A stretch of DNA of 41,827 nt from contig JAUMCA010000126.1 in the NCBI GenBank assembly GCA_032119475.1, forward strand, positions 1 through 41,827, read 5' to 3'. The DNA comes from Thermoleophilia bacterium (lineage in GTDB: Bacteria > Actinomycetota > Thermoleophilia > Gaiellales > F1-60-MAGs149). Of the stretch, positions 4,643 to 41,827 are shown one piece after another (the stretch's first letter is position 1; each line of letters begins with the position of its first letter). The position numbers and the translations under genes were made by a program. The notes under the pieces were generated by a model. It worked only from the letters and a program-made list of their open reading frames with translations. It made no database searches and was not told the origin of the DNA.

Positions 4643-4755
4643 CCTACGGCCGCCCCGCTCGCGGTCGTCACAAGGCTAACGCTCGGTAGCCGAAACGGCG
4701 AACGCGTGGTAGCCTCACCGGGCGCGGATCCGCGCCGGGAGGAGAGGGGGTCGGC

Positions 4756-10217: not shown

Positions 10218-10243
10218 CAGCCGCCCGGTCAGGCCGTCGGTAT

Positions 10244-10271
10244 TTGCATTCTAGTGTATACACTGTATGCT
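10244..10271 (+). promoter_or_regulatory. sigma70-like promoter (TTGCAT-N16-TATGCT) with embedded 12-bp perfect palindrome AGTGTATACACT (10253-10264)
   Basis: This is an AT-rich island in the divergent region between the GntR gene and the hydantoinase gene. The hexamers and palindrome are read directly from the sequence. The palindrome has the GT..TA..AC core typical of GntR-family operators. Confidence 0.45.
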
Positions 10272-10336
10272 CTCGCCCACGCACTGCACCGAAGCGGCAG
10301 GAAACCCGCTCAGGGACAGAGGAAGGGAGTTCGCTC

Positions 10337-24195: not shown

Positions 24196-24278
24196 GGCGC
24201 AACGCTATCAGCGGCCGGGTGACCGCCGGTAGACTGGCGGACGCGCGCGACCCGCGTGCAGGCCACGAGGAGCGCGTG

Positions 24279-25412: not shown

Positions 25413-25418
25413 CCGGAA

Positions 25419-25449
25419 TGAATGAAAGGGGCCAGACCCCTTTCATTCA
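25419..25449. repeat. AT-rich palindromic hairpin element, copy B1 (13-bp stem, loop CCAGA)
   Basis: The sequence is TGAATGAAAGGGG-CCAGA-CCCCTTTCATTCA, beginning 7 nt after the TAG of the acyl-CoA dehydrogenase. Confidence 0.85.
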
Positions 25450-25467
25450 CCGTCTTCATCGCCGTAG

Positions 25468-25498
25468 TGAATGAAAGGGGTCTGGCCCCTTTCATTCA
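25468..25498. repeat. AT-rich palindromic hairpin element, copy B2 (exact reverse complement of B1; loop TCTGG)
   Basis: The sequence is TGAATGAAAGGGG-TCTGG-CCCCTTTCATTCA. Its last three bases (25496-25498) are the TGA stop of the minus-strand biotin carboxylase gene. It is 18 nt from B1. Confidence 0.85.
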
Positions 25499-27103: not shown

Positions 27104-27837
27104 GGCGGCTCCTCGTCGGCGAGCAGGGCGCGGAGCCCCGCCTGCCCCTCGGCGGAGCTGCGCACGTCGGCGATGAGCTGCGCGAGGTCCTCCTCGGACG
27201 GCCGCTCGCGCAGCATCCGCTTGGCGATGCGCACGGCCTCCGGCCCGTTCGCGCACAGGAGCCCGGCGAGCCGGTCCGCCTCCGCCAGCGGGTCCTCGGC
27301 GATGCCGGCGACGAGCCCGATGCGGAGCGCCTCGTCGGCGTCGAAGCGCTCGGCCGTCAGCAGGTAGCGTCGCGCCGCGGTCGGGCCGATCCGGGCGGTC
27401 ACGTAGGGCGAGATCGTCGCCGGCACGAGCCCGATGCGGGTCTCGGTGAAGGCGAACCGCGTGCCGGGCGCGGCGATCGCGATGTCGCAGCAGGCGACGA
27501 GGCCGGCGCCGCCGGCGATCGCGTGGCCGTGGACGGCCGCGACGACCGGCGCGGGGCAGGCGTCGAGGGTGCGGAACAGCGTCGCCAGCCGCTGGCCCTC
27601 CGCGCGGTTGGCCTCGTGGTCGAGGTCAGCGCTCGCGCGCATCCAGTCGAGATCCGCGCCCGCGCTGAAGCTGGGCCCCTCGCCACGCAGGACGACGCAG
27701 CGCGCGTCGCCGACGTCTCGGACGGCCGCGGTCAGGTCCGCGATCATCCCAGCGTCGAACGCGTTGCGACGGTCCGGGCGCGTCAGCGTGACGCGCAGCA
27801 TCGGACCGTCGCGATGGGTGGAGACGGTCTCGCCCAT
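27082..27837 (-). CDS. enoyl-CoA hydratase (methylglutaconyl-CoA hydratase-like by context)
   Basis: This is the 251-aa part of ORF 27082..29154(-), starting at ATG 27835-27837 (MGETVST...). Crotonase blocks are PDRRNAF, FSAGADLDWM, and VVAAVHGHAIAGGAGL. Its 3' end overlaps the alpha-subunit start by 22 nt. Confidence 0.85.
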   Translation of the reverse strand: MGETVSTHRDGPMLRVTLTRPDRRNAFDAGMIADLTAAVRDVGDARCVVLRGEGPSFSAGADLDWMRASADLDHEANRAEGQRLATLFRTLDACPAPVVAAVHGHAIAGGAGLVACCDIAIAAPGTRFAFTETRIGLVPATISPYVTARIGPTAARRYLLTAERFDADEALRIGLVAGIAEDPLAEADRLAGLLCANGPEAVRIAKRMLRERPSEEDLAQLIADVRSSAEGQAGLRALLADEEPPWRSAPS

Positions 27838-27839
27838 CG

Positions 27840-29387
27840 CTACATCCGGAAGACGCCGAAGGAGGGGGCGGGAATCGGGTCCTGCGCGGCCGCCAGGCCC
27901 AGCGCCAGGACGCGGCGCGTGTCGCGCGGGTCGATCAGGCCGTCGTCCCACAGGCGGGCCGTCGCGAAGTAGGCGTCGCTCTCGGCCTCTAGCCGGTCCC
28001 GGGCCTCGGCCGCCGCGTCGCTGCCGACCTGCTCCAGCACGAGCGCGGCCTGCTCGGCGCCCATCACGCCCGTCCGCGCGTTCGGCCACGCCCACAGCTG
28101 ACGCGGCTGGAACGCGCGTCCGCACATGCCGTAGTTGCCGGCGCCGAACGAGCCGCCGATGACCACGGTGAACTTCGGCACCTGCGCGCACGACACCGCG
28201 GTGACGAGCTTGGCGCCGTCCTTGGCGATGCCGCCGTGCTCGGCCCGCGTGCCGACCATGAAGCCGGTGATGTTCTGCAGGAAGACGAGCGGGATCCGCC
28301 GCTGGCAGGCCAGTTCCACGAAGTGCGCGCCCTTCAACGCCGACGCCGACACGAGCACGCCGTGGTTGGCCAGGATCGCGACGGGCTGCCCCTCGATCTC
28401 CGCGAAGCCGCACACCAGCGTCTCGCCGTACTCGGCCTTGAACTCGTGGAAGCGGCTGCCGTCGACGATGCGGCCGATGACCTCGCGCACGTCGTACGGC
28501 TGGCGGTAGTCGACCGGCACGACGCCGAGCAGGTCCTCGGGGTCGTGGAGCGGCGCATCGCCCCCGACGGGTGCCGGGCGGGCGGGCGGCAGCGTCGCCA
28601 CGATCTCCCGGACGATCGCGAGGGCGTGCTCGTCGTCCGCGGCCTCGTGGTCGGCGACGCCGGAGATGCGCGCGTGCACCGCGGCGCCGCCGAGGTCCTC
28701 CGCGGTCACCTCCTCGCCGGTGGCGGCCTTCACGAGCGGCGGGCCGCCGAGGAAGATCGTCCCGGTGCCGCGGACGATCACCGTCTCGTCGCTCATCGCC
28801 GGCACGTACGCGCCGCCGGCCGTGCACGATCCCATCACGGCGGCCACCTGCGCGATCCCGGCCTGCGACATGCGCGCCTGGTTGTAGAAGATCCGGCCGA
28901 AGTGATCGCGGTCGGGGAACACGTCCGCCTGCATCGGCAGGTAGGCGCCGCCGGAGTCGACGAGGTACACGCAGGGCAGGTGGTTCTCGAGCGCGACCTC
29001 CTGCGCCCGCAGGTGCTTCTTCACGGTCAGCGGGTAGTACGTGCCGCCCTTGACGGTCGCGTCGTTGGCCACGATCACCACCGGCCGGCCCTGCACCGCG
29101 CCGATGCCCGTGACGATCCCCGCCGCCGGGACGACGCCGTCGTACATCTCCCACGCCGCGAGGGCGCCGAGCTCCAGGAACGCGCCGTCGGGATCGACGA
29201 GCCGGTCGATGCGCTCGCGGGCGAGGAGCTTGCCGCGACCGCGATGCCGCTCGCGGGACGCCTCGCTGCCGCCGACGGCGATGGCCTGCCGGCGCTCGAC
29301 CAGCTGGGCGACGAGGGCGTCCATGGCGCGGGCGCGATCCGCGAACTGCGGGTCCGCGCGGTCGACGTGGGTGGGCAGGATTCCCAT
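27840..29387 (-). CDS. acyl-CoA carboxylase carboxyltransferase (beta) subunit, methylcrotonyl-CoA carboxylase-like
   Basis: This is the 515-aa part of ORF 27840..30701(-), starting at ATG 29385-29387 (MGILPTH...). Carboxyl_trans blocks are [59 protein letters not shown], and [11 protein letters not shown]. Confidence 0.9.
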
Positions 29388-29447
29388 CGGCCGGAAGCGT
29401 ACTGCGGGCCCCGTGCCCGGGCGCGACGACCCGGTAGCCTTCCCCCC

Positions 29448-30791
29448 GTGGACGAGACCTGCGAGATCGTCGTCGTCGGCGCCGGGATCGCCGGCCTCAG
29501 CGCGGCGTGGGAGCTGCGCGACCGCGAGGTGGTCGTCCTCGAGGCGTCGGAGCGGCCGGGCGGCCGCATCATGTCCGTGCCGCGCGGCGACCACTGGCTC
29601 AACCTGGGCGCGCACGTGTTCGCCGGCGAGGACTCCGGCGTCGGCCGCCTCGTCGCCGAGAGCGGGGTGCGGGCCTCGACGATCCCCGGCGTGCTCACCG
29701 CCGTGTCGTACCGCGGCACGCTCCTGACGGGCGGGCGCGTCGAGCTGTACCCGTTCCGACTGCCGATCTCGCTGCGCGGCAAGATGGACTTCGTCCGCGT
29801 CGGGATGCGACTCAAGCGCCGTGTCGGCGAGTACGCGCAGGTCGTGCAGCCGCGGGCGGGCGAGTCGCTGCCGGAGCGCCAGGAGCGCGTCCTCGCGTTC
29901 ATGGACGACCGCTCGGCGATGGACGCGCTCGGCCCGATGTCCCCGGAGGTCGACGCCTTCTTCCGCTGCACGCTGACGCGCGGCACCGGCGAGCCCGAGG
30001 AGATCGCCGCGGGCTACGGCATCGGCTACTTCCACATGGTCTGGGACAAGACCGGCGGCATGGGGCGCAACATCGTCGGCGGCACCCAGACCCTGATGGA
30101 CGCGCTCGCCGCCCCGCACGGCGACCGCGCCCGCTACGGCGCCCGGGTCACGCGCATCGCCCAGGACGCCGACGGCGTCACCGTCGTGTACCGCCAGGGC
30201 GACGCCGAGCGCACGCTGCGGGCGCGGTCCGCCGTCGTGGCCACGCAGGCCTTCGCGACGCGCGAGATCGTGGAGGGCCTGCCGCCGGACATGGCGGCCG
30301 CGATGCGCGAGCTCCGCTACGGGCCGAACGTCTGCGCGGCGTTCCTCACCGACGAGGAGGGGCCGCAGCGGTGGGACGACGTCTACGCGATCGCGACCCC
30401 GGAGCGCTCGATCACGATGCTGTTCAACATGGACAACGTCTCGCGGGCGGTCGGCGCGCCCCGTGCGAAGGGCACGAGCTTCATGGTCTACGCCGTCGCC
30501 GACCTCGGCCGGCGCGCGCTCGAGATGGAGGGCGAGGCCGTGCTCGACGCGTACCAGCGCGACCTCGAGGAGGTGCTGCCCGAGGTGCGCGGTCGCGTCG
30601 TCGAGCGGGTGCTCCGCAAGGTCGAGGGCGGGCTGCCGTTCCCGCACGTCGGGCGCGGCCGGCTCCAGTCGGCGCTGACCCAGCCGCTCGGCCGCATCCA
30701 CCTCGCCGGCGACTACCTCGGCTCCTGGTACGCGGAGACCGCGGCCCTGACCGGTCGCTGGGCGGCCGAGCGCGCCGGAGCGCAGCGGTGA
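29448..30791 (+). CDS. FAD-dependent amine oxidase / NAD(P)-binding oxidoreductase, paralog 1
   Basis: Lies inside ORF 28236..30791. The start is placed at GTG 29448 ([21 protein letters not shown]...). It has an N-terminal dinucleotide fold with GGR and a C-terminal IHLAGDY...ETAALTG flavin amine-oxidase-type motif. It is collinear with the ORF at 31745. Confidence 0.8.
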
Positions 30792-31717
30792 GCGGTCTGG
30801 CCACGCTGCTCGCCGGCGGTCCGGCGGCGATCGACGGGGGCTTCGCGACCGAGCTCGAGGCGATGGGCCACGACCTGTCGGACGACCTCTGGTCGGCGCG
30901 GCTCCTCCGCGACGGCCCCGACGCCGTCGAGGCCGTGCACCTCGCGTACCTCCGCGCCGGTGCGCGGGTCGTGATCACGGCGTCGTACCAGGCGAGCGCC
31001 GAGTCGTTCGCGACCGCGGGCATCCCGGCGACCGAGGCGGACGGCCTGCTCGCCGCGAGCGTCACGCTCGCGCAGGCGGCACGTGCCGCGTGCGCGGCGG
31101 AGCGGCCCGAGGCGCTCACCGCGCTCGTCGCGGCGTCGCTCGGTCCGTACGGCGCGATGCTCGCGGAGGGGCAGGAGTACACCGGCGACTACGGCGGCGC
31201 CGGGCGCGCCGAGATCGAGCGCTTCCACCGGCCGCGGGTCGCCGCCCTGCTCGGCGCGGCGCCCGACCTGCTGGCGTGGGAGACGATCCCGCACGTGGCC
31301 GAGGCCGAGGCGATCGCCGATCTGCAGGCGGCGTTCGACGGCCCGGACGCCTGGGTCTCGTTCCAGTGCCGCGACGGCGGCCGGATCGCCGACGGCACGC
31401 CGATCGAGGACGCCGTCGCGCGCGTCGCGACCGCCCCGGGCGTCCGCGCGGTCGGCTGCAACTGCACGGCGCCCGAGCACGTGCTCGAGGTGATCTCCCG
31501 TGTGCGCTCAGCCGCGCCGGACCTCGCCGTGGTGGTCTACCCGAACGACGGCCGCGTGTGGGACGGCGCCGCGCGCGCCTGGGCGACCGGCGGCGCCGGG
31601 GGCTTCCCGGCCGAGACGGTGCGCGCGTGGGCGGCCGCGGGGGCGACGCTGATCGGCGGCTGCTGCGGCGTCACGCCCGACGGCGTGCGCGGCATCGCCG
31701 ACGCGCTCGCCGGCTGA
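30788..31717 (+). CDS. homocysteine S-methyltransferase family protein (MmuM/BHMT-like)
   Basis: Lies inside ORF 29507..31717. The GTG start overlaps the upstream TGA (GTGA at 30788-30791). Blocks are [10 protein letters not shown], the helix [26 protein letters not shown], and the Zn-ligand box IGGCCGVTP. Confidence 0.85.
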
Positions 31718-31744
31718 CGCGCGCCACACGACTACGCTGCCTCC

Positions 31745-33079
31745 ATGGGCACCTACGACCACGACGTCATCATCGTGGGGGCCGGCATCGCCGGCCTCGC
31801 GGCGGCGTGGGACCTGCGCGACCGGGACGTGGTCGTCCTCGAGCGGGCGGGACGCGTCGGTGGCCGCATCCGCTCCGAGGCGCGCGGCGACCTGTGGCTC
31901 AACCTCGGGGCGCACGTGTACGCGGACGACGACTCGGCCGCCGGGACCCTGATGCTCGAGGCGGGCGCCGCACCACGCGACATCCCCGGCGTCCTCACGG
32001 CGGTCTCGTACCAGGGCCGGCTCGTCGCCGACGGGCCGCTCGAGCTCTACCCCTTCAAGCTGCCGATCTCGCTGCGGGGGCGCGCCGCCTTCGTCCGCAC
32101 CGGGTTGCGGCTGCGCCGCCTCGTCGCCGAGTACGGCGCGATGGCGGTGCCGCGGCCCGGCGAGACGCCGGCCGAGCGCCAGCAGCGGATGCTCGACTTC
32201 ATGGACGACCGCTCGTTCACCGAGGCCCTCGGCGTGCTGCACCCCGAGGTCGACGCGTTCTTCCGCTGCACCCTCACGCGTGGCACCGGGGAGCCGGAGC
32301 AGATCGCCGCCGGCTACGGCGTGGGCTACTTCCACCTCGCCTGGAACCAGGAGGACGGCCTGGGCCGCAACATCGTCGGCGGGCCCCAGACGCTGATCGA
32401 CGCGCTCGCGGCACCGCACGGCGACCGCATCCGCCTGGGCGCGGTCGTGACGCGCGTGGCGCAGGACGGGGACGGCGTCAGCGTCGACGTCGACGAGGAC
32501 GGCGCACGACGGACGCTGCGGGCACGGGCGGCGATCGTGTCGACGCCGTCGCACGTCACCGCCGAGCTCGTCCAGGGCATCCCCGCCGCGACCGACGCCG
32601 CGCTGCGCGCCGTCACCTACGGCCCGATGATCTCCGCCGCGTTCCTGACCGACGAGGAGGGCCCGCAGCGCTGGGACGGCATCTACGCCGTCGCCACCCC
32701 CGGACGGGCGACGTCGATGCTGTTCAACATGGGGAACGTCCTGATGCCGCAGCGGCCGCGCGGCTCGAGCTTCATGACGTACTCCTCGGCGAACCTCGCG
32801 CGGCGGATCATGGGCGAGTCCGACGAGACGATCCTCGACCGCTACCAGTCGGAGCTGGAGGGCGTCTTCCCGGAGCTCCGCGGCCACGTCGTCGAGCGCC
32901 TGCTCCATCGCGTGGACCCGGGCATCCCGTACCCGTTCGTCGGGCGCAGCCGCATCCAGCCGGCGCTGCTCGCCCCGCTCGGCCGCGTGCACCTCTGCGG
33001 CGACTACCTCGGCACGTGGTACGCCGAGACGTCCGTCTGGACGGGCCGCGCCGCTGCGGCGGCGGCGCGGATGCGCTAG
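31745..33079 (+). CDS. FAD-dependent amine oxidase / NAD(P)-binding oxidoreductase, paralog 2
   Basis: A 444-aa ORF ([22 protein letters not shown]...). It shares long identical blocks with the 29448 gene: [74 protein letters not shown], and MLFNM. Confidence 0.85.
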   Translation: MGTYDHDVIIVGAGIAGLAAAWDLRDRDVVVLERAGRVGGRIRSEARGDLWLNLGAHVYADDDSAAGTLMLEAGAAPRDIPGVLTAVSYQGRLVADGPLELYPFKLPISLRGRAAFVRTGLRLRRLVAEYGAMAVPRPGETPAERQQRMLDFMDDRSFTEALGVLHPEVDAFFRCTLTRGTGEPEQIAAGYGVGYFHLAWNQEDGLGRNIVGGPQTLIDALAAPHGDRIRLGAVVTRVAQDGDGVSVDVDEDGARRTLRARAAIVSTPSHVTAELVQGIPAATDAALRAVTYGPMISAAFLTDEEGPQRWDGIYAVATPGRATSMLFNMGNVLMPQRPRGSSFMTYSSANLARRIMGESDETILDRYQSELEGVFPELRGHVVERLLHRVDPGIPYPFVGRSRIQPALLAPLGRVHLCGDYLGTWYAETSVWTGRAAAAAARMR

Positions 33080-33086
33080 CGGGCGC

Positions 33087-33824
33087 TCACGCCACGACCT
33101 GGATCGTGCTCGCGACGCCGCGGGCGTCCTGCTCGCCGGCCGGGGTGCGCACGACGATGCGCACGCGGTCGGAGCGGAACAGGTCCTGCGAGTACTCGAA
33201 CGGGCGGCCGTCGCGGTCCCAGGCGGTGCGGATGATCGCGACCAGCGGGGTGGAGCGGCGGACGTCGAGCAGCGTCGCCTCGTCGCGTCCGGCGCCGACG
33301 ATCTGGATGCGCTCCTCGGCCTCGCCCGGCTGCACCCCGTAGTGGTCGAGCAGCAGCGCGTAGAGCGAGCCGGCGAGGCTCTGGTCGAGCAGGTCGGGGA
33401 AGCGCGCGGCCGGGAGCCGTGCGCGCTCGTACGAGATCGGCTCGCCGTCGGCCAGGCGGACGCGGACGATCTCCAGGACCGGCGCGCCGACCTGGAGGTC
33501 GAGCGCCTCGGCCGTCTCGGCGTCGGCGGGGATCGTCCCCGTCGAGAGGACCCGCGCGTCGGGGTTGAACCCCTGGCGGCGCAGGTACTGCGGCAGGCCG
33601 GCGAGGCTCGTCAGATCGCGTTCCACCTTGCGGGGCGCCACGAAGACGCCGCCCGTGCGGCCGGGCAGCCGCCGCACGGCGCCGGTGGTCTCGAGGGCGT
33701 CCAGCGCCGAGCGCAGCGTCGACCGGCTGACGCCGTAGTGGGCGGCGAGGTCGCGCTCGCCGCCCAGCCGCTCGCCGGGCGCGAGGGTGCCGTCGGCGAT
33801 CTCGCCCGCGATCCGGTCGCGCAC
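33087..33824 (-). CDS. GntR family regulator, HutC subfamily (wHTH + UTRA domain)
   Basis: This is the C-terminal part of ORF 33087..34448(-). It has a wHTH (ERDLAAHYGVSRSTLRSALDALETTGAVRRLPGRTGGVFV) and a UTRA-like C-terminal domain. The start is uncertain. GTG 33822-33824 is the first canonical start after the SDR stop, and a CTG at 33879-33881 overlapping that stop is the alternative. Confidence 0.75.
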   Translation of the reverse strand: MRDRIAGEIADGTLAPGERLGGERDLAAHYGVSRSTLRSALDALETTGAVRRLPGRTGGVFVAPRKVERDLTSLAGLPQYLRRQGFNPDARVLSTGTIPADAETAEALDLQVGAPVLEIVRVRLADGEPISYERARLPAARFPDLLDQSLAGSLYALLLDHYGVQPGEAEERIQIVGAGRDEATLLDVRRSTPLVAIIRTAWDRDGRPFEYSQDLFRSDRVRIVVRTPAGEQDARGVASTIQVVA

Positions 33825-33877
33825 CTGCGCCGCGGCCGGGCCCAGCGGAGCACCCGGCTGCTGCGGGACGCGGGGGC

Positions 33878-34657
33878 TCAGATCGCCTCCATCGCCGAGG
33901 GCGCCTCCGGCAGCGTCTGCCCGCCGTCGACGACGATCGTCTGGCCGGTGATGAACTTCGCCTCGTCGGTGGCGAGGAACATCGCGGCGGTGCCGATGTC
34001 CTCGACCTCGCCGAGGTGCCCGAGGGGGATCGACTCGGCCGCGGTGCGCAGGTAGTCCTCGCCCAGCCCCTGCAGGCCCTCCGTGAGGACGTTGCCCGGC
34101 AGGACGGCGTTGATGGTGATCTTCTTCGGGGCGAGCTCCATCGCGGCGCCGCGCATGAAGCCGAGCTGGCCGGCCTTCGACGCGCCGTAATGCGAGAGCG
34201 CCGGGATCGCCGTGAACGGCCCCGTGATCGACGACGTCAGGACGATGCGCCCGCGGCCCGACTGCGCGAGGGCCGGGATGGCGGCGACGACCGTGAGGAT
34301 GTTGCCCTTCAGGTTCGTGTCGAGCATGTCGTCGAGCGCTTCCTCGGTCATCTCGTCGAGGCGCGTCTCCGGGAAGATGCCGGCGTTCGCGCAGAGGACG
34401 TCGAGCGCACCGTGGCGCGCGACGACCTCGTCCACCATGCGGCGGCACTCGTCGGCCTTGCGCACGTCACCCTGGACGAACGAGGCGTTCTCGCCGAGCT
34501 CGGCGACGGCCGCCTCGCCGGTCGCGGCATCGCGGCCCGACACGGCCACGCGGCAGCCGGCGCGCGCGAAGACGCGGGCGATGCCCAGGCCGATGCCCTT
34601 CGTGCCGCCGGTGACGAGGACGCTGCGGCCCTCCAGGGGGGTGAACATCGTGCTCAT
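33878..34657 (-). CDS. short-chain dehydrogenase/reductase (amino-alcohol/aminoketone dehydrogenase by context)
   Basis: A 259-aa ORF. It has TGGTKGIG (TGxxxGxG), NAG, and the catalytic S...YGASK (YxxxK). The RBS GAGGAG overlaps the upstream stop. Confidence 0.9.
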   Translation of the reverse strand: MSTMFTPLEGRSVLVTGGTKGIGLGIARVFARAGCRVAVSGRDAATGEAAVAELGENASFVQGDVRKADECRRMVDEVVARHGALDVLCANAGIFPETRLDEMTEEALDDMLDTNLKGNILTVVAAIPALAQSGRGRIVLTSSITGPFTAIPALSHYGASKAGQLGFMRGAAMELAPKKITINAVLPGNVLTEGLQGLGEDYLRTAAESIPLGHLGEVEDIGTAAMFLATDEAKFITGQTIVVDGGQTLPEAPSAMEAI

Positions 34658-34667
34658 CTCGTGCTCC

Positions 34668-35663
34668 TCATGCGTAGGAGGCCAGGTAGGCCTCGGCCAA
34701 CGGGACGGTGTCGATGGTGAAGCCCTCGCCCAGCTCCTGCGCCTCGGTCGCGAACGCGTAGTGCGAGCCGACCCAGGTGACGAGGAGCATGCGACGGAGC
34801 ATCACGAAGGTGTCGAGCTCGGCCTCGTCCGCGGCCGCGAGCGGCGCCACCTCGCGGTAGCCCTCGAGCCACGAGGCGCGGAACTCGGGCTCGCGCGGGT
34901 GCTCCTCGAAGAACGAGACGGTGGTGGCGTAGTCGTACATGAACCAGCCGTCGCCGCAGTCGTCGAAGTCGATGACGCGGATGTGGTCGCCGTCCTCCAG
35001 CAGGTTCGCGAGCCGCTGGTCGGAGTGGCACAGCCCGAAGCGCTCCGGACCCGTGCCGTAGGCCGCGAGACGACGCTGGATCGTGTCGACCGTGCGCTGG
35101 AACAGCTGCAGCATGTCGCCGGTGACGCCGACGCCGTCCTGCCAGCGCCCCCAGTGGCCGTGGGCGCCGAGGGTGTGGTCGAAGTCCCAGGAGAAGCGGG
35201 TGAAGGCGGCGGGTCGCTGCCAGCTGCGCGCGTGCCCGTGCATGCGCGCGGCGATGCCGCCGAGCGTCCGGTAGCCCGGCAGCGGGTCGACGGTGTCGGG
35301 GTCCGGCGGCTCGCCGGGCGCCCACTCGAACAGGACGACGTTGCGCTCCTGCACACCGGCGATCGCGGCCTGCGTCACCCGGCGGCCGTCCGCGGCCGCA
35401 ACGGGCACGACGCTGTCGACGACGCCGTCGGCGCGCAGGGCGTCGATCCACATCAGCTCGCTCTCGATCGCCGCGGCCGAGTGGTAGCCCGGGCGGTGCA
35501 GGCGCAGCGCGAACGCCTGCCCGCTGGCCGGATCGTCGACCCGGTACGTGTAGTTCTCCGAGACGTTGACCAGCCGCATCGTCGACGCGGGGTCGACGGC
35601 GTACGGCGCCAGCGCCGCCTGCGCCAGCCGATCGATCGCCTCCTGCTCCTCTGCCTCGCCCAA
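34668..35663 (-). CDS. aminoglycoside-phosphotransferase-fold (APH) small-molecule kinase (amino-alcohol kinase by context)
   Basis: A 331-aa ORF with a TTG start 6 nt after GGAGGAGG. It has the catalytic loop CHSDQRLANLL (HxDxxxxN) and the metal-binding VIDFDDCG. Confidence 0.85.
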   Translation of the reverse strand: MGEAEEQEAIDRLAQAALAPYAVDPASTMRLVNVSENYTYRVDDPASGQAFALRLHRPGYHSAAAIESELMWIDALRADGVVDSVVPVAAADGRRVTQAAIAGVQERNVVLFEWAPGEPPDPDTVDPLPGYRTLGGIAARMHGHARSWQRPAAFTRFSWDFDHTLGAHGHWGRWQDGVGVTGDMLQLFQRTVDTIQRRLAAYGTGPERFGLCHSDQRLANLLEDGDHIRVIDFDDCGDGWFMYDYATTVSFFEEHPREPEFRASWLEGYREVAPLAAADEAELDTFVMLRRMLLVTWVGSHYAFATEAQELGEGFTIDTVPLAEAYLASYA

Positions 35664-35696
35664 CCTGCCCCTCCTCCGGACGGTGAGTATATGCCG

Positions 35697-36341
35697 CTAG
35701 GAGTGCTCGCGTCCCTCTACCGACTCCAGCACCCGCGTGATCTCGTCGCGCGCGCGGATGACGCTCGCGGTCGGACCGGACATGTAGATGCGCCCGGCCG
35801 CGCCGATCATCGACACGTTGACGAGCGTGACGTCGGGCGCCACGCGCTCCGCCTCGTTGGCGGCGATCGCCGCGAACAGGGCGGGCGTCATCTCGTACAC
35901 CAGCAGCGTCTGGCCCGGCAGGACCATCGACGCCTCGCGGGTGCGGTTGACGATCACCGCGTGCTGGTCCGTGATGTCCTCGATGACGTCCGAGTACAGG
36001 ATGCGCGGCCGCAGCTGGTGCGACGCCTCCGCGCCCGTGCCCTCGAGGATCGCCGCACCCGCCCGCTCGACGGCGTCGCGGTCGGCGGCGTGGAGCTCGA
36101 GCACGCCGAACTGGCGCTCGACGAAGAGGATGCCCGGCTCGACCTCCGGGACCGCCTTGAGCGCGAGGTCGATGACGCGCTCGATGGCCAGGCCGGGGGC
36201 GACCTCGATGATGAGGGCGTGATCGCCCGCCATCGGCGGGTAGCCCCGTGCCCGCGTCGGGGATCCCATGTACGCCGCGAACTGCCGCTGCAGATCGTGG
36301 ATCGGGAGGTAGACGCGCAGCTCGATATCCGGCCCGGCCAT
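35697..36341 (-). CDS. tandem-domain BMC shell protein (BMC-T-like), paralog 2
   Basis: A 214-aa ORF with two BMC-like halves. The first is ALIIEVAPGLAIERVIDLALKAV...VLELHAADRDAVERA. The second is LLVYEMTPALFAAIAANEAERVAPDVTLV...GAAGRIYMSG. It is collinear with the 37451 paralog. Confidence 0.8.
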   Translation of the reverse strand: MAGPDIELRVYLPIHDLQRQFAAYMGSPTRARGYPPMAGDHALIIEVAPGLAIERVIDLALKAVPEVEPGILFVERQFGVLELHAADRDAVERAGAAILEGTGAEASHQLRPRILYSDVIEDITDQHAVIVNRTREASMVLPGQTLLVYEMTPALFAAIAANEAERVAPDVTLVNVSMIGAAGRIYMSGPTASVIRARDEITRVLESVEGREHS

Positions 36342-36350
36342 CGTCGCGAC

Positions 36351-36626
36351 CTACTTGCTCGCCGTGAAGTGCTTGCCGAGCTCGGCGTGCGGGCGCGGGA
36401 TGACGTGCGCCGAGACGAGCTCGCCGACGGTCGACGCGGTCTCCGAGCCGGCCTCGGTGGCGGCCTTCACGGCCCCGACGTCACCCTGGATGACGACGGC
36501 GACGAGGCCGTCGCCGACCTGCTCGCGGCCGACGATGGTGACGTTGGCGGCCTTCACCATGGCGTCGGCCGCCGCGAGTGCGGCGACGTACCCCTTGGTC
36601 TCGATCATTCCCAGTGCTTCGGACAT
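36351..36626 (-). CDS. BMC-H hexameric shell protein (PduA/EutM/CcmK-like)
   Basis: A 91-aa ORF with ATG after AAGGAGG. It is a canonical single BMC domain: [26 protein letters not shown]...[13 protein letters not shown]. Confidence 0.95.
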
Positions 36627-36654
36627 TCGGTCCCTCCTTCGTGGGTGCGGTGAA

Positions 36655-36897
36655 CTAGCTGGTCGGGTCGATGACGCCGATGATCAGCGCGTCGATCGGC
36701 GGGTGGGCGGGGGCGAAGCGCGACGCGGCGACGGAGCCGGTCGCGATGAGGACGTGCTCGCCGACGCCGGTCCCGAGGACGTCGAAGGCGACGAGCGCGC
36801 CCCCGGTCTCGAGCTCGACCTCGAGGAACGCGCCGTGGGGCACGTCGTCGATGCGCTTGGTGGCCCAGATGGACCCCTTCACGGTGCCTTTCAGCAT
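36655..36897 (-). CDS. BMC-P pentameric vertex protein (EutN/CcmL/PduN-like)
   Basis: An 80-aa ORF ([19 protein letters not shown]...[22 protein letters not shown]), typical EutN/CcmL size and pattern. The ATG follows GAGGGAG and overlaps the upstream gene end by 7 nt. Confidence 0.9.
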
Positions 36898-37454
36898 GCT
36901 GTCTCCCTCTGGATCTGGACGCCGAGCGCGCGGGCGCGGTCCTTGCCCATCGGCGTGAGAACGGCCTTGGGGCCGAGGACGAGGACGGCGCCCGTGGACG
37001 CGGCCCGCTCGACCATGCGCTCGGTCACGGCGCCGCGCTCGATGTGCTGCGCACCGCCGGGTGCGGTCGGCGCCGGCGCTCCGCCGCCGCCGCCGTTCAG
37101 CGAGAAGCGGATGCGGCCGGCGAGGATGGCCGCGCGCTCCTCGGGGCGCTCGAGGCGCCGCGCGAGCGAGCGCACGAAGGTGTCGAGGTCGCGATCGCTC
37201 TGCAGGCGCACGTGCTCCACGGCGCCGTCCGCCGCTGTGGACGCGGCGGCGGGAGCGGGCGTGGCCGGGCCGGGGGCACCCGCGCCGTTCCAGCCGGTCG
37301 GGCGGTGGACGCCGGGGACGGGCGGAGCCGGGACCTGCGCGACGGGGGGCGCCGACGCCTGCGCCTCGCGCAGCATGTCGGGGAGCAGCTCCTGCAGCGC
37401 GGCCTTCAGCGCCGCGTGCGTCTCGCCGCTGCCGTTGCCGTTGCCCTCGCTCAC
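36891..37454 (-). CDS. BMC-associated hypothetical protein with N-terminal amphipathic helix and Pro/Ala linker
   Basis: This is the 187-aa part of ORF 36891..38003(-). The GTG start overlaps the upstream TGA (GTGA at 37451-37454). The sequence is VSEGNGNGSGETHAALKAALQELLPDMLREAQ, then a ~40-aa P/A/G-rich linker, then two small folded-looking segments. No family is recognised. Confidence 0.65.
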   Translation of the reverse strand: MSEGNGNGSGETHAALKAALQELLPDMLREAQASAPPVAQVPAPPVPGVHRPTGWNGAGAPGPATPAPAAASTAADGAVEHVRLQSDRDLDTFVRSLARRLERPEERAAILAGRIRFSLNGGGGGAPAPTAPGGAQHIERGAVTERMVERAASTGAVLVLGPKAVLTPMGKDRARALGVQIQRETAC

Positions 37455-38068
37455 GCGATGGCCTCCAGCGCCGCGACCGCGGCCTCGCCGGCCGCGCGGA
37501 CGTTGGCCTCTTCGCCCGCGAGGTAGACGCGACCGGTCGCGCCGACCATGCGGTAGTCGATCACCTTGATGTCGGCCGCCTTCTCCGCCTCGTTCGTGGC
37601 GAGGATGGCGTACGACGCCGGCTGCACCTCGAGCACGAACAGCGACTCGCCGGGCAGCAGCATCGAGCCGATGCGGTTGCGGTTGATCAGGAAGGCGTGC
37701 TGGTGGTCGACGCGGCTGATCACCTTCCGCGCGAGCACCTTCGGCTTCGCGGCCGACTGCGCCGAGACGTCCAGCGCGTCGAGCACCGCGCTCGTCGCGG
37801 AGCGGACGGCGGCCGGGTTCTGCGAGTGGAACTCGAGGTAGCCGAACTGGCGCTCGACGAAGAGGATGCCGGCCTCGACCCGGTCGTGCTTGAGCGCGAC
37901 GTCGGTCAGCGGCTCGATGTCCAGACCGGGGGCGACCTCGATGATCTGGGCGGCCATGCCGCTCTTGGGCAGGCGGCCGCGGATCCAGGTGCCGAGGTAG
38001 CACATGGTCTGGGGCTGCAGCTGGTCCAGGTAGATGCAGCTGCGGAGCTCGACGGTGGGTTCGTTCAC
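37451..38068 (-). CDS. tandem-domain BMC shell protein (BMC-T-like), paralog 1
   Basis: Lies inside ORF 37451..38215(-). The start is placed at GTG 38066-38068 (VNEPTVELRSCIYLDQ...), overlapping the aldehyde dehydrogenase TGA (GTGA). Length is 205 aa. Blocks shared with paralog 2 are IEVAPGL.IE, GILFVERQFG, NEAEKAA, and GATGRVYLAG. Confidence 0.8.
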   Translation of the reverse strand: MNEPTVELRSCIYLDQLQPQTMCYLGTWIRGRLPKSGMAAQIIEVAPGLDIEPLTDVALKHDRVEAGILFVERQFGYLEFHSQNPAAVRSATSAVLDALDVSAQSAAKPKVLARKVISRVDHQHAFLINRNRIGSMLLPGESLFVLEVQPASYAILATNEAEKAADIKVIDYRMVGATGRVYLAGEEANVRAAGEAAVAALEAIA

Positions 38069-39606
38069 TGGCGGGTCAGCTCCTTGAGCTCCTCGAGGAT
38101 GACGCGACGGATCTCCTCGCGGAGCGGGTCGGTCGTGTCGGGATCGGCGGTCGGGTGGGCGGTCGGCGCGACGGGCGGCTCGATCGCGATCGGCTCGGCG
38201 GGGTGATGGCCCCACGGCTCGATGCCGGCGAAGTCGTCGAAGGGGACGCGGGCGTCGGCGTTGTACGCGACGCGCATCCAGTTGACGAAGTGCCTCGGCT
38301 CGAGGTTCTCGCCGACCGACGAGCGGCCGTAGAAGCCGGTGCCGATGGTCATCGTCGGCGCGAGGTTCGTCAGGACGCCCGCGGAGCCGAGGCTGTTGCC
38401 GACGTTGACGGAGACGCGCAGGACCTTCACCGCGGCGCCGTAGGCCATGATCGTGCGTGCATCGCGCGAGTGGATCGAGGCGGAGTGGCCGGCACCGGTG
38501 ATGCGCAGCATCGCGAGCGCCGCGGAGATGCCCGCGCGGACGTTCGGCACGCGCACGAGCCCGAGCAGCGGGAACAGCTTCTCCCGCGCCAGCGGCTCCT
38601 CGGGGACGACGAGCGAGAACGGCGCGACGAGGATGCGCGTATCGGCGGGCACGCGGATGCCGGCCGCCTCGGCGAGCACGGTCGCGTCCTTGCCGACCAG
38701 ATCGACGCGCATGTGGTTGTCGGGGAACAGCGCCTCGCGGACCTTCTCGACCTCGTCCTCGCTGCAGACGTGGGCACCGGCCTTGCGCAGTTCGCGCTCG
38801 AGCTGGTCGGCGACCGGCTCCTCCACGATCACGCAGGACTCGTTCGTGCAGAGGATCGAGTTGTCGAACGCCTTCGAGTCGACGATGTGGCGGGCCGCGG
38901 CCGGGACGTCGGCCGTGCGGTCGACGAACGACGGCACGTTGCCGGGGCCGACGCCGAGGGCGGGGTTGCCGGAGCGGTAGGCCGCCCGCACGACGGCGCT
39001 GCCGCCCGTGGCGACGATCACGTCCGTCGTGGCGTCGGCCATCAGCGCCTCGATCAGCGGCACGGACGGCTCCTCGACGACCTGGATGCAGCCGTCGGGC
39101 GCGCCGGCGCGGACGGCCGCGTCGGACAGCATGTGGACCGCCTCGGCGCAGACGCGCTTGGCGGAGGGGTGCGGGCTGACGACGATCGCGTTGCGCGTCA
39201 TCAGCGCCAGCAGGACCTTGAAGTAGATCGTCGCGATCGGATTCGTGGTCGGGGTGAGCGCGAAGATCACGCCGGCCGGTCGCGGGAGCTCGAGGATCTT
39301 CGCCCCGGCGTCGACGCGCGGGCTGACGAAGTCGTGGTCGCGGTAGGTGTCCCAGAGGTCGCGCGAGCAGGCCCGGTTCTTCAGCACCTTGTGCTCGACG
39401 ACGCCCATGCCCGTCTCGGCGACCGCCTTCTCGGCGTACTCCTCCGCGTGCGCCTCGGCGGCGGCCACGACGGCGTCCATGATCCGCACGACGCGCTCGC
39501 GGTCGTAGCGCGCGAAGAGGTCGGCGGCCCAGTGGGCGCGCTGGAGCATCATGCGGGCGCGCGGCCCGCCGGGCGGCTCGGTCTGCGTCAGCTCGATCAC
39601 GCTCAT
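38065..39606 (-). CDS. CoA-acylating aldehyde dehydrogenase (PduP/EutE-like) with C-terminal encapsulation-peptide-like helix
   Basis: This is the 513-aa part of ORF 38065..40224(-), starting at ATG 39604-39606 (MSVIELT...), which overlaps the upstream TGA (ATGA). Blocks are VATGGSAVVRAAYRSGNPALGVGPGN and the catalytic Cys box FDNSILCTNES. A Pro-rich linker is followed by DPLREEIRRVILEELKELTRQ at the C-terminus. Confidence 0.9.
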   Translation of the reverse strand: MSVIELTQTEPPGGPRARMMLQRAHWAADLFARYDRERVVRIMDAVVAAAEAHAEEYAEKAVAETGMGVVEHKVLKNRACSRDLWDTYRDHDFVSPRVDAGAKILELPRPAGVIFALTPTTNPIATIYFKVLLALMTRNAIVVSPHPSAKRVCAEAVHMLSDAAVRAGAPDGCIQVVEEPSVPLIEALMADATTDVIVATGGSAVVRAAYRSGNPALGVGPGNVPSFVDRTADVPAAARHIVDSKAFDNSILCTNESCVIVEEPVADQLERELRKAGAHVCSEDEVEKVREALFPDNHMRVDLVGKDATVLAEAAGIRVPADTRILVAPFSLVVPEEPLAREKLFPLLGLVRVPNVRAGISAALAMLRITGAGHSASIHSRDARTIMAYGAAVKVLRVSVNVGNSLGSAGVLTNLAPTMTIGTGFYGRSSVGENLEPRHFVNWMRVAYNADARVPFDDFAGIEPWGHHPAEPIAIEPPVAPTAHPTADPDTTDPLREEIRRVILEELKELTRQ

Positions 39607-40895
39607 GCCGGCACCGCCGTCCGGGTCATGGCCTTCCACTCGGCGTGGGCCTTGCCGATCGCGATCTCCGTGCGGTCGAGGATCTCGTCGACCAGCTCGG
39701 GACCGAGCAGGATGCCGGGCTTGAACTGCAGGATCCGCGCGTCGAGCGTGGAGAAGATCGCCCACACCCCGTGCGCGTACAGGTGCTTCATGACGATCTT
39801 CGCGCCCTGCGGGTGGTTGAACTCGAGGCCCATCACGACGCCGTCCTGGCGGATGCCGACGAACCAGTCGGGGTAGACGTCCTGGATCTGGCGCAGGCCG
39901 TGCTGGAAGCGCTCGGCGATGTAGTGGACCATCGAGCGGACCTCGGGGCGGCCGCAGATCTCCAGCACCTTCATGCTCACCACGCAGCCGAGCTCGGCGC
40001 CGCCGCCCGTGGAGATGTGGCCGAAGCCGTCCTCCTTGAGCCAGGCCGAGCACTCGTCGCTGACCACGACGCAGGCGATGGGGTACATGCCGCCGGTGAT
40101 GCCCTTGCCGATCACCATGATGTCCGGCTCGACGCCGGCCTTCGAGATGCCCCACATCTCGCCCGTGCGCATCAAGCCCGTCTGCACCTCGTCGGCGATG
40201 TAGAGCGTGTCGTACTCCTCGCACAGGCGCTTGACGGCCTGGAGGTAGCCCGGGTCGGGGAGCGGGAAGCCGTAGGTGGCGGGGATCGTCTCCATGATCA
40301 CCGCGGCGCAGTCACGGCCCTTGAGGGCCTCCTCCATCGCGTTGAGGTCGTTGAACGGGATCTGCACGAACTCCTCGGGGTGATCCGCGAGGAACAGCTT
40401 GGAGAAGCGGTCGTCGCCGGTGCCGACGGCGAGGCCGGTGTGGCCGTGGTAGGCCTTGATGATCGAGACGATCTTGCGGCGCTGCTTGGTGTGGCGGGCG
40501 GTCTTGATGGCGATGTCCGTCGCCTCGCCGCCGCCGGAGCCGTAGATGACGCGCTGCATGTTCGGGGAGCACGTCTTCACCAGCGCCTCGGCGAGCGCGG
40601 TGCGCGCGAGGGCGGGGAAGTGGTGGTTGCCGATGTCGAAGTGCTGCATCGCCTGCTCGAGCGTGGCGATCAGCTCCGGATTGCGATGGCCGACGTTGTA
40701 GGTGCCGCCGTTGAGGTGGAGGTCGATCAGCCGGCGGCCGGCCATGTCCCAGAAGAGGTAGCCCTCGCGGCGGTCGATCACGAGGTCGATGCCCGCGTCC
40801 TGCCAGAAGTCCGTCTTGTTCGGGTTCCAGAACGCGCGGGAGCGCTCGAGCATGTCCTCCTTCGACTTGTACGAGAAGAACCCGTAGTCGTACAT
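39603..40895 (-). CDS. class-III aminotransferase-fold PLP enzyme (amino-alcohol-phosphate phospho-lyase-like by context)
   Basis: A 430-aa ORF with ATG after AAGGAGAGG. Blocks are GSGGGEATD, DEVQTGLMRTG, and the PLP-lysine box VIGKGITGG. It is the first gene of the BMC operon. Confidence 0.9.
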   Translation of the reverse strand: MYDYGFFSYKSKEDMLERSRAFWNPNKTDFWQDAGIDLVIDRREGYLFWDMAGRRLIDLHLNGGTYNVGHRNPELIATLEQAMQHFDIGNHHFPALARTALAEALVKTCSPNMQRVIYGSGGGEATDIAIKTARHTKQRRKIVSIIKAYHGHTGLAVGTGDDRFSKLFLADHPEEFVQIPFNDLNAMEEALKGRDCAAVIMETIPATYGFPLPDPGYLQAVKRLCEEYDTLYIADEVQTGLMRTGEMWGISKAGVEPDIMVIGKGITGGMYPIACVVVSDECSAWLKEDGFGHISTGGGAELGCVVSMKVLEICGRPEVRSMVHYIAERFQHGLRQIQDVYPDWFVGIRQDGVVMGLEFNHPQGAKIVMKHLYAHGVWAIFSTLDARILQFKPGILLGPELVDEILDRTEIAIGKAHAEWKAMTRTAVPA

Positions 40896-40917
40896 GCAGC
40901 CTCTCCTTGCCGGAGTT

Positions 40918-40983
40918 GGACCGCAATGTACCGATCACCAGACCGAATTGCAAATCGGTCTGGTTTTGGTCCGGTTGCGGTCC
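40918..40983 (-). promoter_or_regulatory. BMC operon promoter (minus strand: -35 TTGCAA 40948-40953, 17-nt spacer, -10 TACATT 40925-40930) embedded in nested inverted repeats
   Basis: All elements are read directly from the sequence. The inner element is a 28-bp near-perfect palindrome ACCAGACCGAaTTGCAAaTCGGTCTGGT (40937-40964). The outer element is a 9-bp inverted repeat GGACCGCAA (40918-40926) / TTGCGGTCC (40975-40983). The region is an AT-rich island, and the RBS AAGGAGAGG precedes the ATG at 40895. Confidence 0.5.
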
Positions 40984-40990
40984 GGTGACG

Positions 40991-41827
40991 TCAGTCCTGC
41001 TGCGCTGCCCAGCGGCCGGCGCGGATGCCGGACTCGATCGCGCCGTCGATGAAGCCGGCCCAGCCGTCGGCGAGGTCCGAGCCCGCGAGGATCAGGCGCC
41101 CCTCGGGGCGCTGCATCTCCGCGTGGAAGCGCGCGTACCAGCCGGGCCGGTGCACGGCCCACGTGCCGCGCGACCACGGGTCATCGACCCAGTCGTGCGC
41201 CGTCGCCGCCCGGATCACCCGCCCGGGCAGCGTCGCGTCGAGCTGCCGCTGGAGCGCCCCGGGGTCGTCCACCGCGATCGCCGTGTGATCGACGCCGAAG
41301 GCGATCAGGACGTCCGTGCCGTCGTCGAGCCGCTGCTGCGTGCTGACGTGGCCGATCGGCGCGGCGTGGTGGAGCGCGTTGATCCCCTCGCCGCTGGCGT
41401 CGACGCGTAGGTGCACCTTGGCGCCGCGCGACGGCTGCCCGCCCGCGATCCCCGCGCGCTTGCCCTCCGAGACCTCCATGGCGATCGCCCCGAGCACGTT
41501 CAGCGGTACGGCCACGACCACGGCGCGCGCGGCGTGGGCGGTGCCGTCGGCGGTGGTCACCACGACGCGGTCCGGCTCCTGCTCGATCGCCGTCACCGGC
41601 GTCGCCAGCCGCGTCTCCGCCGCGGCCGCCCGGTGGATCGGCTCCAGGATCGCGCGGGTCCCCTCGGCGATCGTGATCGCCCCGCCGGTCTCGACGGCGA
41701 GGTCGAAGTCGTGGCCGCTCAGCGCGTGCCAGCGCACGACGCTGAACGCGCCGCTCTCCTCGAGCGGGCCGTGGGCGAGCGTCATCAGCTCGGCGCGGAG
41801 GACGTCGCGCTCCTCGTCGGTCAGGTC
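40991..41827 (-). CDS. flavin-containing amine oxidase (MAO-like), 5'-truncated by window end
   Basis: The frame of ORF 40991..41785(-) stays open to the window edge (DLTDEERDVLRAELMTLAHG...). The C-terminal flavin amine-oxidase motif is RLILAGSDLADGWAGFIDGAIESG. Only about 278 C-terminal residues are visible. Confidence 0.8.
   Translation of the reverse strand, partial: DLTDEERDVLRAELMTLAHGPLEESGAFSVVRWHALSGHDFDLAVETGGAITIAEGTRAILEPIHRAAAAETRLATPVTAIEQEPDRVVVTTADGTAHAARAVVVAVPLNVLGAIAMEVSEGKRAGIAGGQPSRGAKVHLRVDASGEGINALHHAAPIGHVSTQQRLDDGTDVLIAFGVDHTAIAVDDPGALQRQLDATLPGRVIRAATAHDWVDDPWSRGTWAVHRPGWYARFHAEMQRPEGRLILAGSDLADGWAGFIDGAIESGIRAGRWAAQQD

Follow-up and report, generated by a model that had tools for sequence, protein, structure and literature searches.

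The window analysed here is a stretch of 41,827 nucleotides (GenBank assembly GCA_032119475.1, contig JAUMCA010000126.1; GC content ca. 72%) from a Thermoleophilia bacterium. Its minus strand carries, between positions 33087 and 40895, ten closely spaced genes for the shell proteins, enzymes and regulator of a bacterial microcompartment (BMC; Table 1). An ORF check showed all ten open reading frames (ORFs) to be intact. A first-pass annotation of the sequence had placed ten co-directional microcompartment genes at these coordinates, which proved accurate. The gene order that it gave is correct when read in plus-strand coordinates, but transcription runs in the opposite direction, with the gene for a pyridoxal-phosphate (PLP) enzyme first and that for a GntR-type regulator last. 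Pfam searches recovered the families to which it had assigned BMC-H, BMC-P, the PLP enzyme, the aldehyde dehydrogenase, the APH kinase, the short-chain dehydrogenase/reductase (SDR), and the HutC-type GntR regulator.

Table 1. Microcompartment genes and upstream features in the window, in the direction of transcription. Values after accessions are E-values.
Feature	Coordinates	Strand	Length (aa)	Matches and remarks
Flavin amine oxidase, C-terminal part	40991..41827	-	278	PF01593 1.3e-25; cut by window end; operon membership uncertain
Candidate promoter and operator	40918..40983	-		Nested inverted repeat in 95-bp gap 5' of PLP enzyme gene
Class-III aminotransferase-fold PLP enzyme	39603..40895	-	430	PF00202 1e-67; first gene transcribed
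CoA-acylating aldehyde dehydrogenase	38065..39606	-	513	PF00171 1e-23
BMC-Tdp shell protein	37451..38068	-	205	Orthologue of M. smegmatis MSM0275
Conserved RMM-specific protein without assigned function	36891..37454	-	187
BMC-P pentameric vertex protein	36655..36897	-	80	PF03319 4.5e-17
BMC-H hexameric shell protein	36351..36626	-	91	PF00936 6.5e-28; EutM model 1e-30
Second, distinct BMC-Tdp shell protein	35697..36341	-	214	Orthologue of M. smegmatis MSM0271
APH-fold amino-alcohol kinase	34668..35663	-	331	PF01636 1.7e-24; 6EF6 1.4e-82
SDR	33878..34657	-	259	PF13561/PF00106 ~1e-55; 6CI8 and 6CI9 8e-91
HutC-subfamily GntR regulator	33087..33824	-	~246	PF00392 1.9e-15; PF07702 (UTRA) 2.4e-44

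The first four gene junctions were start/stop overlaps: ATGA, joining the stop of the PLP enzyme gene to the start of the aldehyde dehydrogenase gene; GTGA, joining the aldehyde dehydrogenase stop to the start of the gene for the 205-aa shell protein; a second GTGA; and ATGCTGA, in which the stop of the 187-aa gene overlaps the BMC-P start. The following four intergenic gaps measured 9-33 nt. The gap between the SDR and GntR genes was ca. 53 nt, a value that depends on an uncertain GntR start (the first in-frame GTG lies at 33824 and the frame stays open to 33877). These overlaps and short gaps indicated that the ten genes very likely form a single, translationally coupled operon, for which one common promoter is plausible. 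A Shine-Dalgarno-like AGGAGA was found 8 nt 5' of the ATG of the PLP enzyme gene, and the GC content at third codon positions (GC3) of the operon ORFs, where measured, was 0.86-0.97, typical of coding sequence.

The first-pass annotation had expected the shell ORFs to be recognised by PF00936 and PF03319. This held for BMC-H and BMC-P, which matched clearly, but the two tandem-domain proteins were scarcely detected (26.6 bits against PF00936 for the 205-aa protein, no match for the 214-aa protein) and were placed by solved structures instead. In PDB sequence searches, the 205-aa protein matched 5L39 (MSM0275; 1.5e-87) and CcmP (8e-53), and the 214-aa protein matched 5SUH (MSM0271; 9.3e-95); E-values against the NCBIfam CcmP model were 3.5e-65 and 3e-58, respectively. 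Since both also matched CcmP and CsoS1D, both were assigned to BMC-Tdp. They share the tandem-domain architecture of these two proteins (CcmP matches 1e-46 to 1e-53) but, at 197-220 bits, scored under the CcmP equivalog cut-off of 340. Unlike the carboxysome of CcmP and CsoS1D, moreover, the window operon encodes a catabolic metabolosome without RuBisCO or carbonic anhydrase. No further shell genes were found among the window genes.

This inventory, with single BMC-H and BMC-P proteins and a pair of different BMC-Tdp proteins, is exactly that by which Sutter (2021, Supplementary Data 2) defined the RMM1/AAUM1 type. RMM microcompartments are described in reviews as utilising 1-amino-2-propanol and aminoacetone, and the structures 5L39, 5SUH, 6EF6, and 6CI8 all belong to this RMM/AAUM type (MCPdb, reviews). 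The other marks of RMM1/AAUM1 were also present: a class-III aminotransferase-fold enzyme adjoining an acylating aldehyde dehydrogenase, an APH kinase and an SDR orthologous to APK and APDH of Mycobacterium smegmatis, a GntR regulator within the locus, and the RMM1 rather than the RMM2 gene order. The regulator had the HutC architecture: in a 257-aa translation, PF00392 covered residues 10-68 and PF07702 residues 96-234. Phosphotransacylase (PTAC) and alcohol dehydrogenase genes were not found among the window genes, as expected for RMM1/AAUM1. The adjacent permease and hydrolase genes that figure in the description by Axen (2014) were also missing; such accessory genes lie outside the definition of Sutter (2021).

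The RMM1/AAUM1 locus of M. smegmatis (MSMEG_0269-0277; Axen 2014, Sutter 2021) contains the same ten families in the same order and resembles the window locus in the C-terminal encapsulation helix of the aldehyde dehydrogenase, the HutC-type GntR regulator, and the lack of PTAC and alcohol dehydrogenase genes. Identities to Mycolicibacterium proteins ranged from 44% (GntR, kinase) to 81% (BMC-H). The two loci differ in host, that of the window being most likely an uncultured, Gaiellales-like freshwater actinobacterium with ca. 72% GC, in the gene upstream, which is a co-directional flavin amine oxidase gene instead of a divergent APC permease gene, and in that the window locus lacks an FmdA-like amidase or other hydrolase genes. 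With four clear M. smegmatis orthologues, a conserved order, and a matching shell inventory, we consider it highly probable, as the first-pass annotation had proposed, that the operon encodes an RMM1/AAUM1-type metabolosome for the catabolism of aminoacetone and 1-amino-2-propanol. Its supposition that the BMC type was already described was borne out by the fit to published RMM1/AAUM1. The locus is thus a further instance of a system already known, in an intact, minimal ten-gene form. Its value is mostly confirmatory, in that a characterised type of organelle is extended to an uncultured freshwater Gaiellales-like lineage.

The distribution of the system was assessed with the 214-aa shell protein as query against genomes of which a single one represented each species, and all window proteins were mapped onto the best 80 loci (L001-L080). 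Relatives of this shell protein occurred in at least 442 species genomes, many Gaiellales and Thermoleophilia MAGs (metagenome-assembled genomes) among them, so that the host context, which had been regarded as possibly new, is not unusual. The ten-gene order was identical in ca. 60 of these best 80 of at least 442 loci, across Actinomycetota: it recurred in Gaiellales/Thermoleophilia MAGs, Nocardioides, Streptomyces, Rhodococcus, Mycolicibacterium (L064, L067, L074, L078), Pseudonocardia, Sporichthyaceae, Brevibacterium, and Nanopelagicales. In Rhodococcus jostii (L052), all genes except a match to the GntR gene were present. The same gene order in the Mycolicibacterium and R. jostii loci agreed with the predicted synteny with the M. 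smegmatis RMM locus. The GntR gene was last in the operon in nearly all relatives. RMM2/AAUM2 loci of Proteobacteria comprise the same enzyme and shell families but have the kinase and SDR genes upstream of the aminotransferase-like gene (L065, L075, L076), and in MAGs labelled Alphaproteobacteria the kinase and SDR genes were likewise shifted upstream, which fits this published order.

The closest loci among the best 80 (L001, L003, L005; freshwater MAGs named Gaiellales or Actinomycetota) encoded a PLP enzyme and shell proteins with 86-92% identity to those of the window. These neighbours and its GC content make a Gaiellales-like freshwater actinobacterium the most likely source of the window; searches of public assemblies for exact copies of two of its proteins gave no match. 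Identity to relatives was 78-97% for nine of the ten genes, with BMC-H spanning this same range, and 58-68% for the 187-aa protein. The RMM1 operon is ordinary and common in the lineage of the window. The catalogue of 2021 comprised 140 RMM1 loci; with at least 442 species genomes, acI/Nanopelagicales MAGs included, their distribution is much wider than that. A literature search on microcompartments in Gaiellales, Thermoleophilia or Nanopelagicales gave nothing relevant.

Some related loci stood out in other respects. Complete RMM1-type loci were present in low-GC (ca. 48%), streamlined Candidatus Nanopelagicales (acI) freshwater MAGs (L021, L022, L025, L027, L037, and others). Actinobacterial-type RMM genes were also seen in MAGs labelled Bifidobacterium, Bifidobacterium breve or Spirochaetaceae (L026, L030, L077, L032, L045, L065); these labels are probably wrong, through mis-binning or misnaming. 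The shell protein of L026 was 84% identical to that of the window, and L026 had the same downstream gene block. Upstream of the RMM locus, a Gaiellales MAG (L012, 2473-4728) and a Mycolicibacterium (L078, 1505-3742) carried a gene for a diol dehydratase with fused large and medium subunits, a gene absent from the window. Association with diol dehydratase gave rise to the original name 'RMM2/PDU2'.

The PLP enzyme has a class-III aminotransferase fold, and its closest solved relatives in a PDB search were PigE and putrescine aminotransferase. GabT numbering was carried over to it via HMMER alignments to YgjG and PigE, a mapping inferred from conserved motifs. In class-III transaminases, R141 and the 'gateway' pair E211/R398 of GabT bind the keto acid; in the phospho-lyase ETNPPL a His occupies the R141 position, and the gateway pair is missing from the lyase PbfA (PMC8154272 supplement). 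None of the three transaminase residues was found in the window enzyme, which carried H152 in place of R141 (YHGHTG), T207 in place of E211 (ETIPATYGF vs EPIQGEGG), and Q390 in place of R398 (ILQFKPG vs TIRIEPP), all three invariant in 56 orthologues. The PLP lysine, K264, was invariant in the orthologues. The enzyme thus resembles ETNPPL (AGXT2L1) in the His at the R141 position and PbfA in the loss of the gateway Glu and Arg, and has kept the PLP lysine as have both these lyases of the class-III fold. Loss of all three keto-acid-binding residues argues against a transaminase and for a lyase, and supports the proposed identification of this protein, the signature enzyme of the system, as a 1-amino-2-propanol O-phosphate phospho-lyase. 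The first-pass proposal of a phospho-lyase role thereby gained support, and the H152/T207/Q390 signature likewise favours the lyase role that has long been assumed for the 'aminotransferase' of RMM loci. Pathway logic and the lost keto-acid residues, never homology, are the grounds for the assignment: in contrast to what would be expected of a relative of ETNPPL or PbfA, the window enzyme is not close to either in sequence, and its activity as a lyase would be an independent development within this fold.

The aldehyde dehydrogenase was of the acylating type (TIGR02518, 9e-120; AdhE N-terminal model, 3e-132). Its C-terminus consisted of a variable, Pro/Ala-rich linker followed by an amphipathic helix, LREEIRRVILEELKEL, which was kept in nearly all of the ca. 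70 related loci in which the gene was found; encapsulation peptides classically take this form, a helix on a variable linker, as read here from the protein sequence. The PLP enzyme had no terminal extension and no targeting peptide. In an alignment with 6EF6, the kinase retained the catalytic H-x-D...N loop and the DFDD motif. Neither the kinase nor the SDR had terminal extensions relative to the crystallised M. smegmatis proteins, which suggests that both probably act outside the shell. According to secondary citations of Mallette and Kimber (2017-2018), the M. smegmatis orthologue of the SDR is a 1-amino-2-propanol dehydrogenase and that of the kinase an (S)-1-amino-2-propanol kinase.

By analogy with these M. 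smegmatis orthologues, the cytosolic SDR would interconvert aminoacetone and (S)-1-amino-2-propanol, and the APH-fold kinase would phosphorylate the latter. The phosphate ester would then enter a shell made of BMC-H, BMC-P, and two different CcmP-like BMC-Tdp proteins, inside which the PLP phospho-lyase may release phosphate, ammonia, and propionaldehyde. The aldehyde dehydrogenase, targeted by its C-terminal helix, would convert the trapped propionaldehyde to propionyl-CoA.

Several observations weigh against this interpretation. Phospho-lyases were absent from the top 60 PDB matches of the PLP enzyme, which is not close in sequence to any characterised phospho-lyase (175 bits against the PbfA model, cut-off 525). 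The kinase was just 44-50% identical to its Mycolicibacterium orthologues, so that its substrate preference could differ. Genes for enzymes that recycle NAD+ and coenzyme A (CoA) were absent from the window, a known gap for the RMM type, and a substrate transporter gene was not recognised anywhere in its 41.8 kb. The promoter hexamers described below fit only 8 of 12 consensus positions, under the threshold of the scan used.

The 187-aa protein gave no match in Pfam (rescanned to an E-value of 10), NCBIfam or a PDB sequence search. A word-index search retrieved 374 homologues, and 854 clusters were found at 50% identity; all were small proteins, and the closest named homologues were from Gaiellales or Thermoleophilia. 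The gene held the same position in most of the 80 mapped loci. Alignment of 57 family members and an AlphaFold (AF2) model (mean predicted local distance difference test score, pLDDT, of 74) delineated an N-terminal amphipathic helix (residues 8-34) resembling an encapsulation peptide, the invariant motif QVPAPPVAxVHRPSGW, a disordered linker, and a compact alpha/beta domain (78-187; pLDDT ca. 90). A Foldseek comparison of this domain with the PDB yielded no match under an E-value of 0.04. The helix-plus-linker design and the absence of a targeting peptide from the lyase make a cargo adaptor or scaffold our best guess for its function. As such, it might recruit or organise cargo that, like the lyase, has no targeting peptide of its own. 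A fold without known match, combined with the encapsulation-like helix, makes the protein a candidate assembly factor. A role of its C-terminal Cys as metal-cluster ligand was considered and rejected, as this residue is confined to the Thermoleophilia clade, where its near-invariance is explained by the overlap of ATGCTGA with the BMC-P start codon. A suspected likeness of its C-terminal motif to N-terminal segments of other BMC-associated proteins could not be substantiated and was dropped.

In the gap 5' of the PLP enzyme gene lay a nested inverted repeat whose 33-nt arms were 73% complementary, with half-sites GGACC / GGACC / AGACC | GGTCT / GGTAC / GGTCC at a spacing of ca. 11 bp. An exact copy of its core palindrome, AGACC-N12-GGTCT at 40940-40961, occurred nowhere else in the window. 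When one mismatch was allowed, three sites were found against 1.2 expected, so that the exact site alone stands out. The six closest loci each had one copy of the core palindrome, at the same place 5' of the aminotransferase-like gene, and in more distant Actinomycetota similar AGACC/GGTCT palindromes occurred near a promoter-like TTGACN-N17-TACAAA. In the window, the centre of the palindrome contained a -35-like TTGCAA, with a -10-like TACATT 17 nt downstream. Scans of 32900-41200 for sigma-70 promoters and intrinsic terminators returned nothing above threshold. The nested palindrome is probably a GntR repressor site that overlaps the -35 region of the putative promoter. Its predicted architecture, which the first-pass annotation had thought potentially new, is that of a typical HutC-family operator, with an AGACC/GGTCT palindrome shared by relatives. 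The GntR protein would probably repress the operon at this site until the amino alcohol or one of its derivatives released it. In Rhodococcus, 1-amino-2-propanol induces the SDR via GntR, according to work cited in Axen (2014). At the other end of the operon, the final codons of the convergent amine-oxidase-family gene contained a 12-nt GC-rich inverted repeat (33046-33070; 92% complementary, 1-nt loop, no T tract), 17 nt away from where the GntR gene stops. Lying between two transcripts that converge, this repeat could form a hairpin that works in both directions.

In most lineages, a gene for an APC permease (PF13520) lay divergently upstream of the operon, often together with one for an FmdA/AmdA-family amidase; among the best 80 of at least 442 loci, the permease was found in 45 and the amidase in 37. 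Amidase and permease genes travelled together as an RMM1 accessory module (e.g., L011, 13390-15966; L037, 2259-5038), which most Actinomycetota carried in divergent orientation upstream of the operon and the Gaiellales-like clade 3' of the GntR gene. The locus-linked amidase points to an N-acylated or amide compound as the precursor entering the pathway in many hosts. Downstream of the GntR gene, both were present in L002, L007, L011, and L026, the amidase alone in L005 and L006, and neither in L008 or the window, where the GntR gene directly abuts its convergent neighbour. No homologue of the APC permease or of the FmdA-like amidase was found anywhere in the window, and the window copy is, by gene content, a minimal variant that has lost the locus-linked permease and amidase. 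From loci with both accessory genes, through those with just the amidase, to those without either, relatives and window form a natural reduction series that defines a minimal set of ten genes.

The flavin amine oxidase gene that the first-pass annotation had noticed at the head of the operon is real, a PF01593 member that is cut by the window end. It is co-directional with the operon, lies upstream of the operator, and belongs to the Pnao/NicA2/6-hydroxynicotine oxidase/MAO-N clade (7U6L and 7E7H, 1e-46). Such an oxidase gene filled the upstream slot only in the six closest of the 80 loci (L001, L003, L004, L005, L008, L011) and is thus a feature of the clade of the window. The oxidases of these relatives were 81-92% identical to one another, and that of the window was 56% identical to them. 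Since L011 carries both oxidase and permease, and the window lacks the permease and an adjacent amidase, the oxidase does not take the place of the permease as had been suggested. The operator palindrome, sought 5' of the amine oxidase gene in relatives as a test of co-regulation, was absent there. A functional link between amine oxidase and operon is possible but unsupported.

These observations were weighed against other interpretations of the operon. The same organelle might, in this lineage, process another substrate, such as ethanolamine or an amino alcohol freed from N-substituted amines by flavin amine oxidases, and hence yield a different aldehyde and acyl-CoA. The divergence of the kinase from its Mycolicibacterium orthologues would be in line with such a change, as would the absence of the permease and amidase linked to the locus in relatives, the constant presence of a NicA2/Pnao/MAO-N-clade oxidase in the upstream slot of this clade, and two further amine-oxidase-family genes just downstream of the operon. 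We nevertheless regard a different substrate as unlikely: all catalytic genes are syntenic orthologues of those of the aminopropanol system, the SDR matches aminopropanol dehydrogenase strongly (8e-91), the window oxidase is a 56%-identical paralogue instead of a conserved partner, and in relatives the operator palindrome was not found 5' of the oxidase gene. Transamination of aminoacetone to methylglyoxal inside the shell, followed by conversion to pyruvyl-CoA by the aldehyde dehydrogenase, was proposed by Axen (2014) and would suit the class-III aminotransferase fold of the PLP enzyme, whose nearest characterised relatives are true transaminases. Invariant replacement of the three residues that position the keto acid makes this route very improbable; in addition, it leaves the universally co-conserved kinase without a role, and later reviews favour the kinase-dependent aminopropanol route.

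Loss of the permease and FmdA-like amidase genes of close relatives, together with a GntR gene that abuts a convergent gene, could also be taken as signs of a decaying remnant that no longer makes a working organelle. The intact state and coding-like GC3 of the ORFs, the retention of catalytic and PLP-binding residues, the high identity to relatives (lower in the 187-aa protein), and the occurrence of the same minimal layout in L008, which marks it as a recurrent, stable configuration, leave hardly any room for this explanation. A wider scheme would retain the RMM1-type metabolosome for aminoacetone and 1-amino-2-propanol but make it the end-point of a longer amine-catabolic route, in which the NicA2/Pnao-like oxidases of a rapidly changing slot directly upstream release, in this freshwater Gaiellales-like clade, aminoacetone or aminopropanol from N-substituted amines that the cell makes or acquires in other ways; a separate part of the scheme has the 187-aa protein as the adaptor that brings the lyase into the shell. 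We hold this scheme to be distinctly doubtful. If true, an oxidase-fed route would explain why permease and amidase are dispensable, and the 187-aa protein would be the missing assembly factor of this BMC type.

Other genes in the window were recorded as well. The block that converges on the operon (29430-33079, plus strand) consisted of two paralogous flavin amine-oxidase-family genes (PF01593, ca. 1e-40 each), with weak similarity to protoporphyrinogen oxidase and HpnE, flanking a homocysteine S-methyltransferase gene (PF02574, 2e-72). The same three genes followed the RMM locus in L006, L007, L008, L011, and L026, at 73-86% identity. The region 24009-29420 encoded an acyl-CoA dehydrogenase (plus strand) beside a biotin carboxylase/biotin carboxyl carrier protein subunit, an enoyl-CoA hydratase, and a carboxyltransferase (minus strand), a layout that resembles a leucine-catabolic methylcrotonyl-CoA carboxylase cluster. 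NCBIfam models do not separate propionyl-CoA from methylcrotonyl-CoA specificity for this carboxylase; if it were specific for propionyl-CoA, the product of the microcompartment would be consumed. The region 370-20689, in which no transporter genes were recognised, was rich in genes for small nitrogen compounds. It encoded a fused DAO plus GCV_T protein resembling sarcosine/dimethylglycine oxidase (4690-7218) and a fused hydantoinase A/B (10097-14212), as well as two isochorismatase-family hydrolases, three amidohydrolases, a luciferase-like monooxygenase, and TetR and GntR-FCD regulators.

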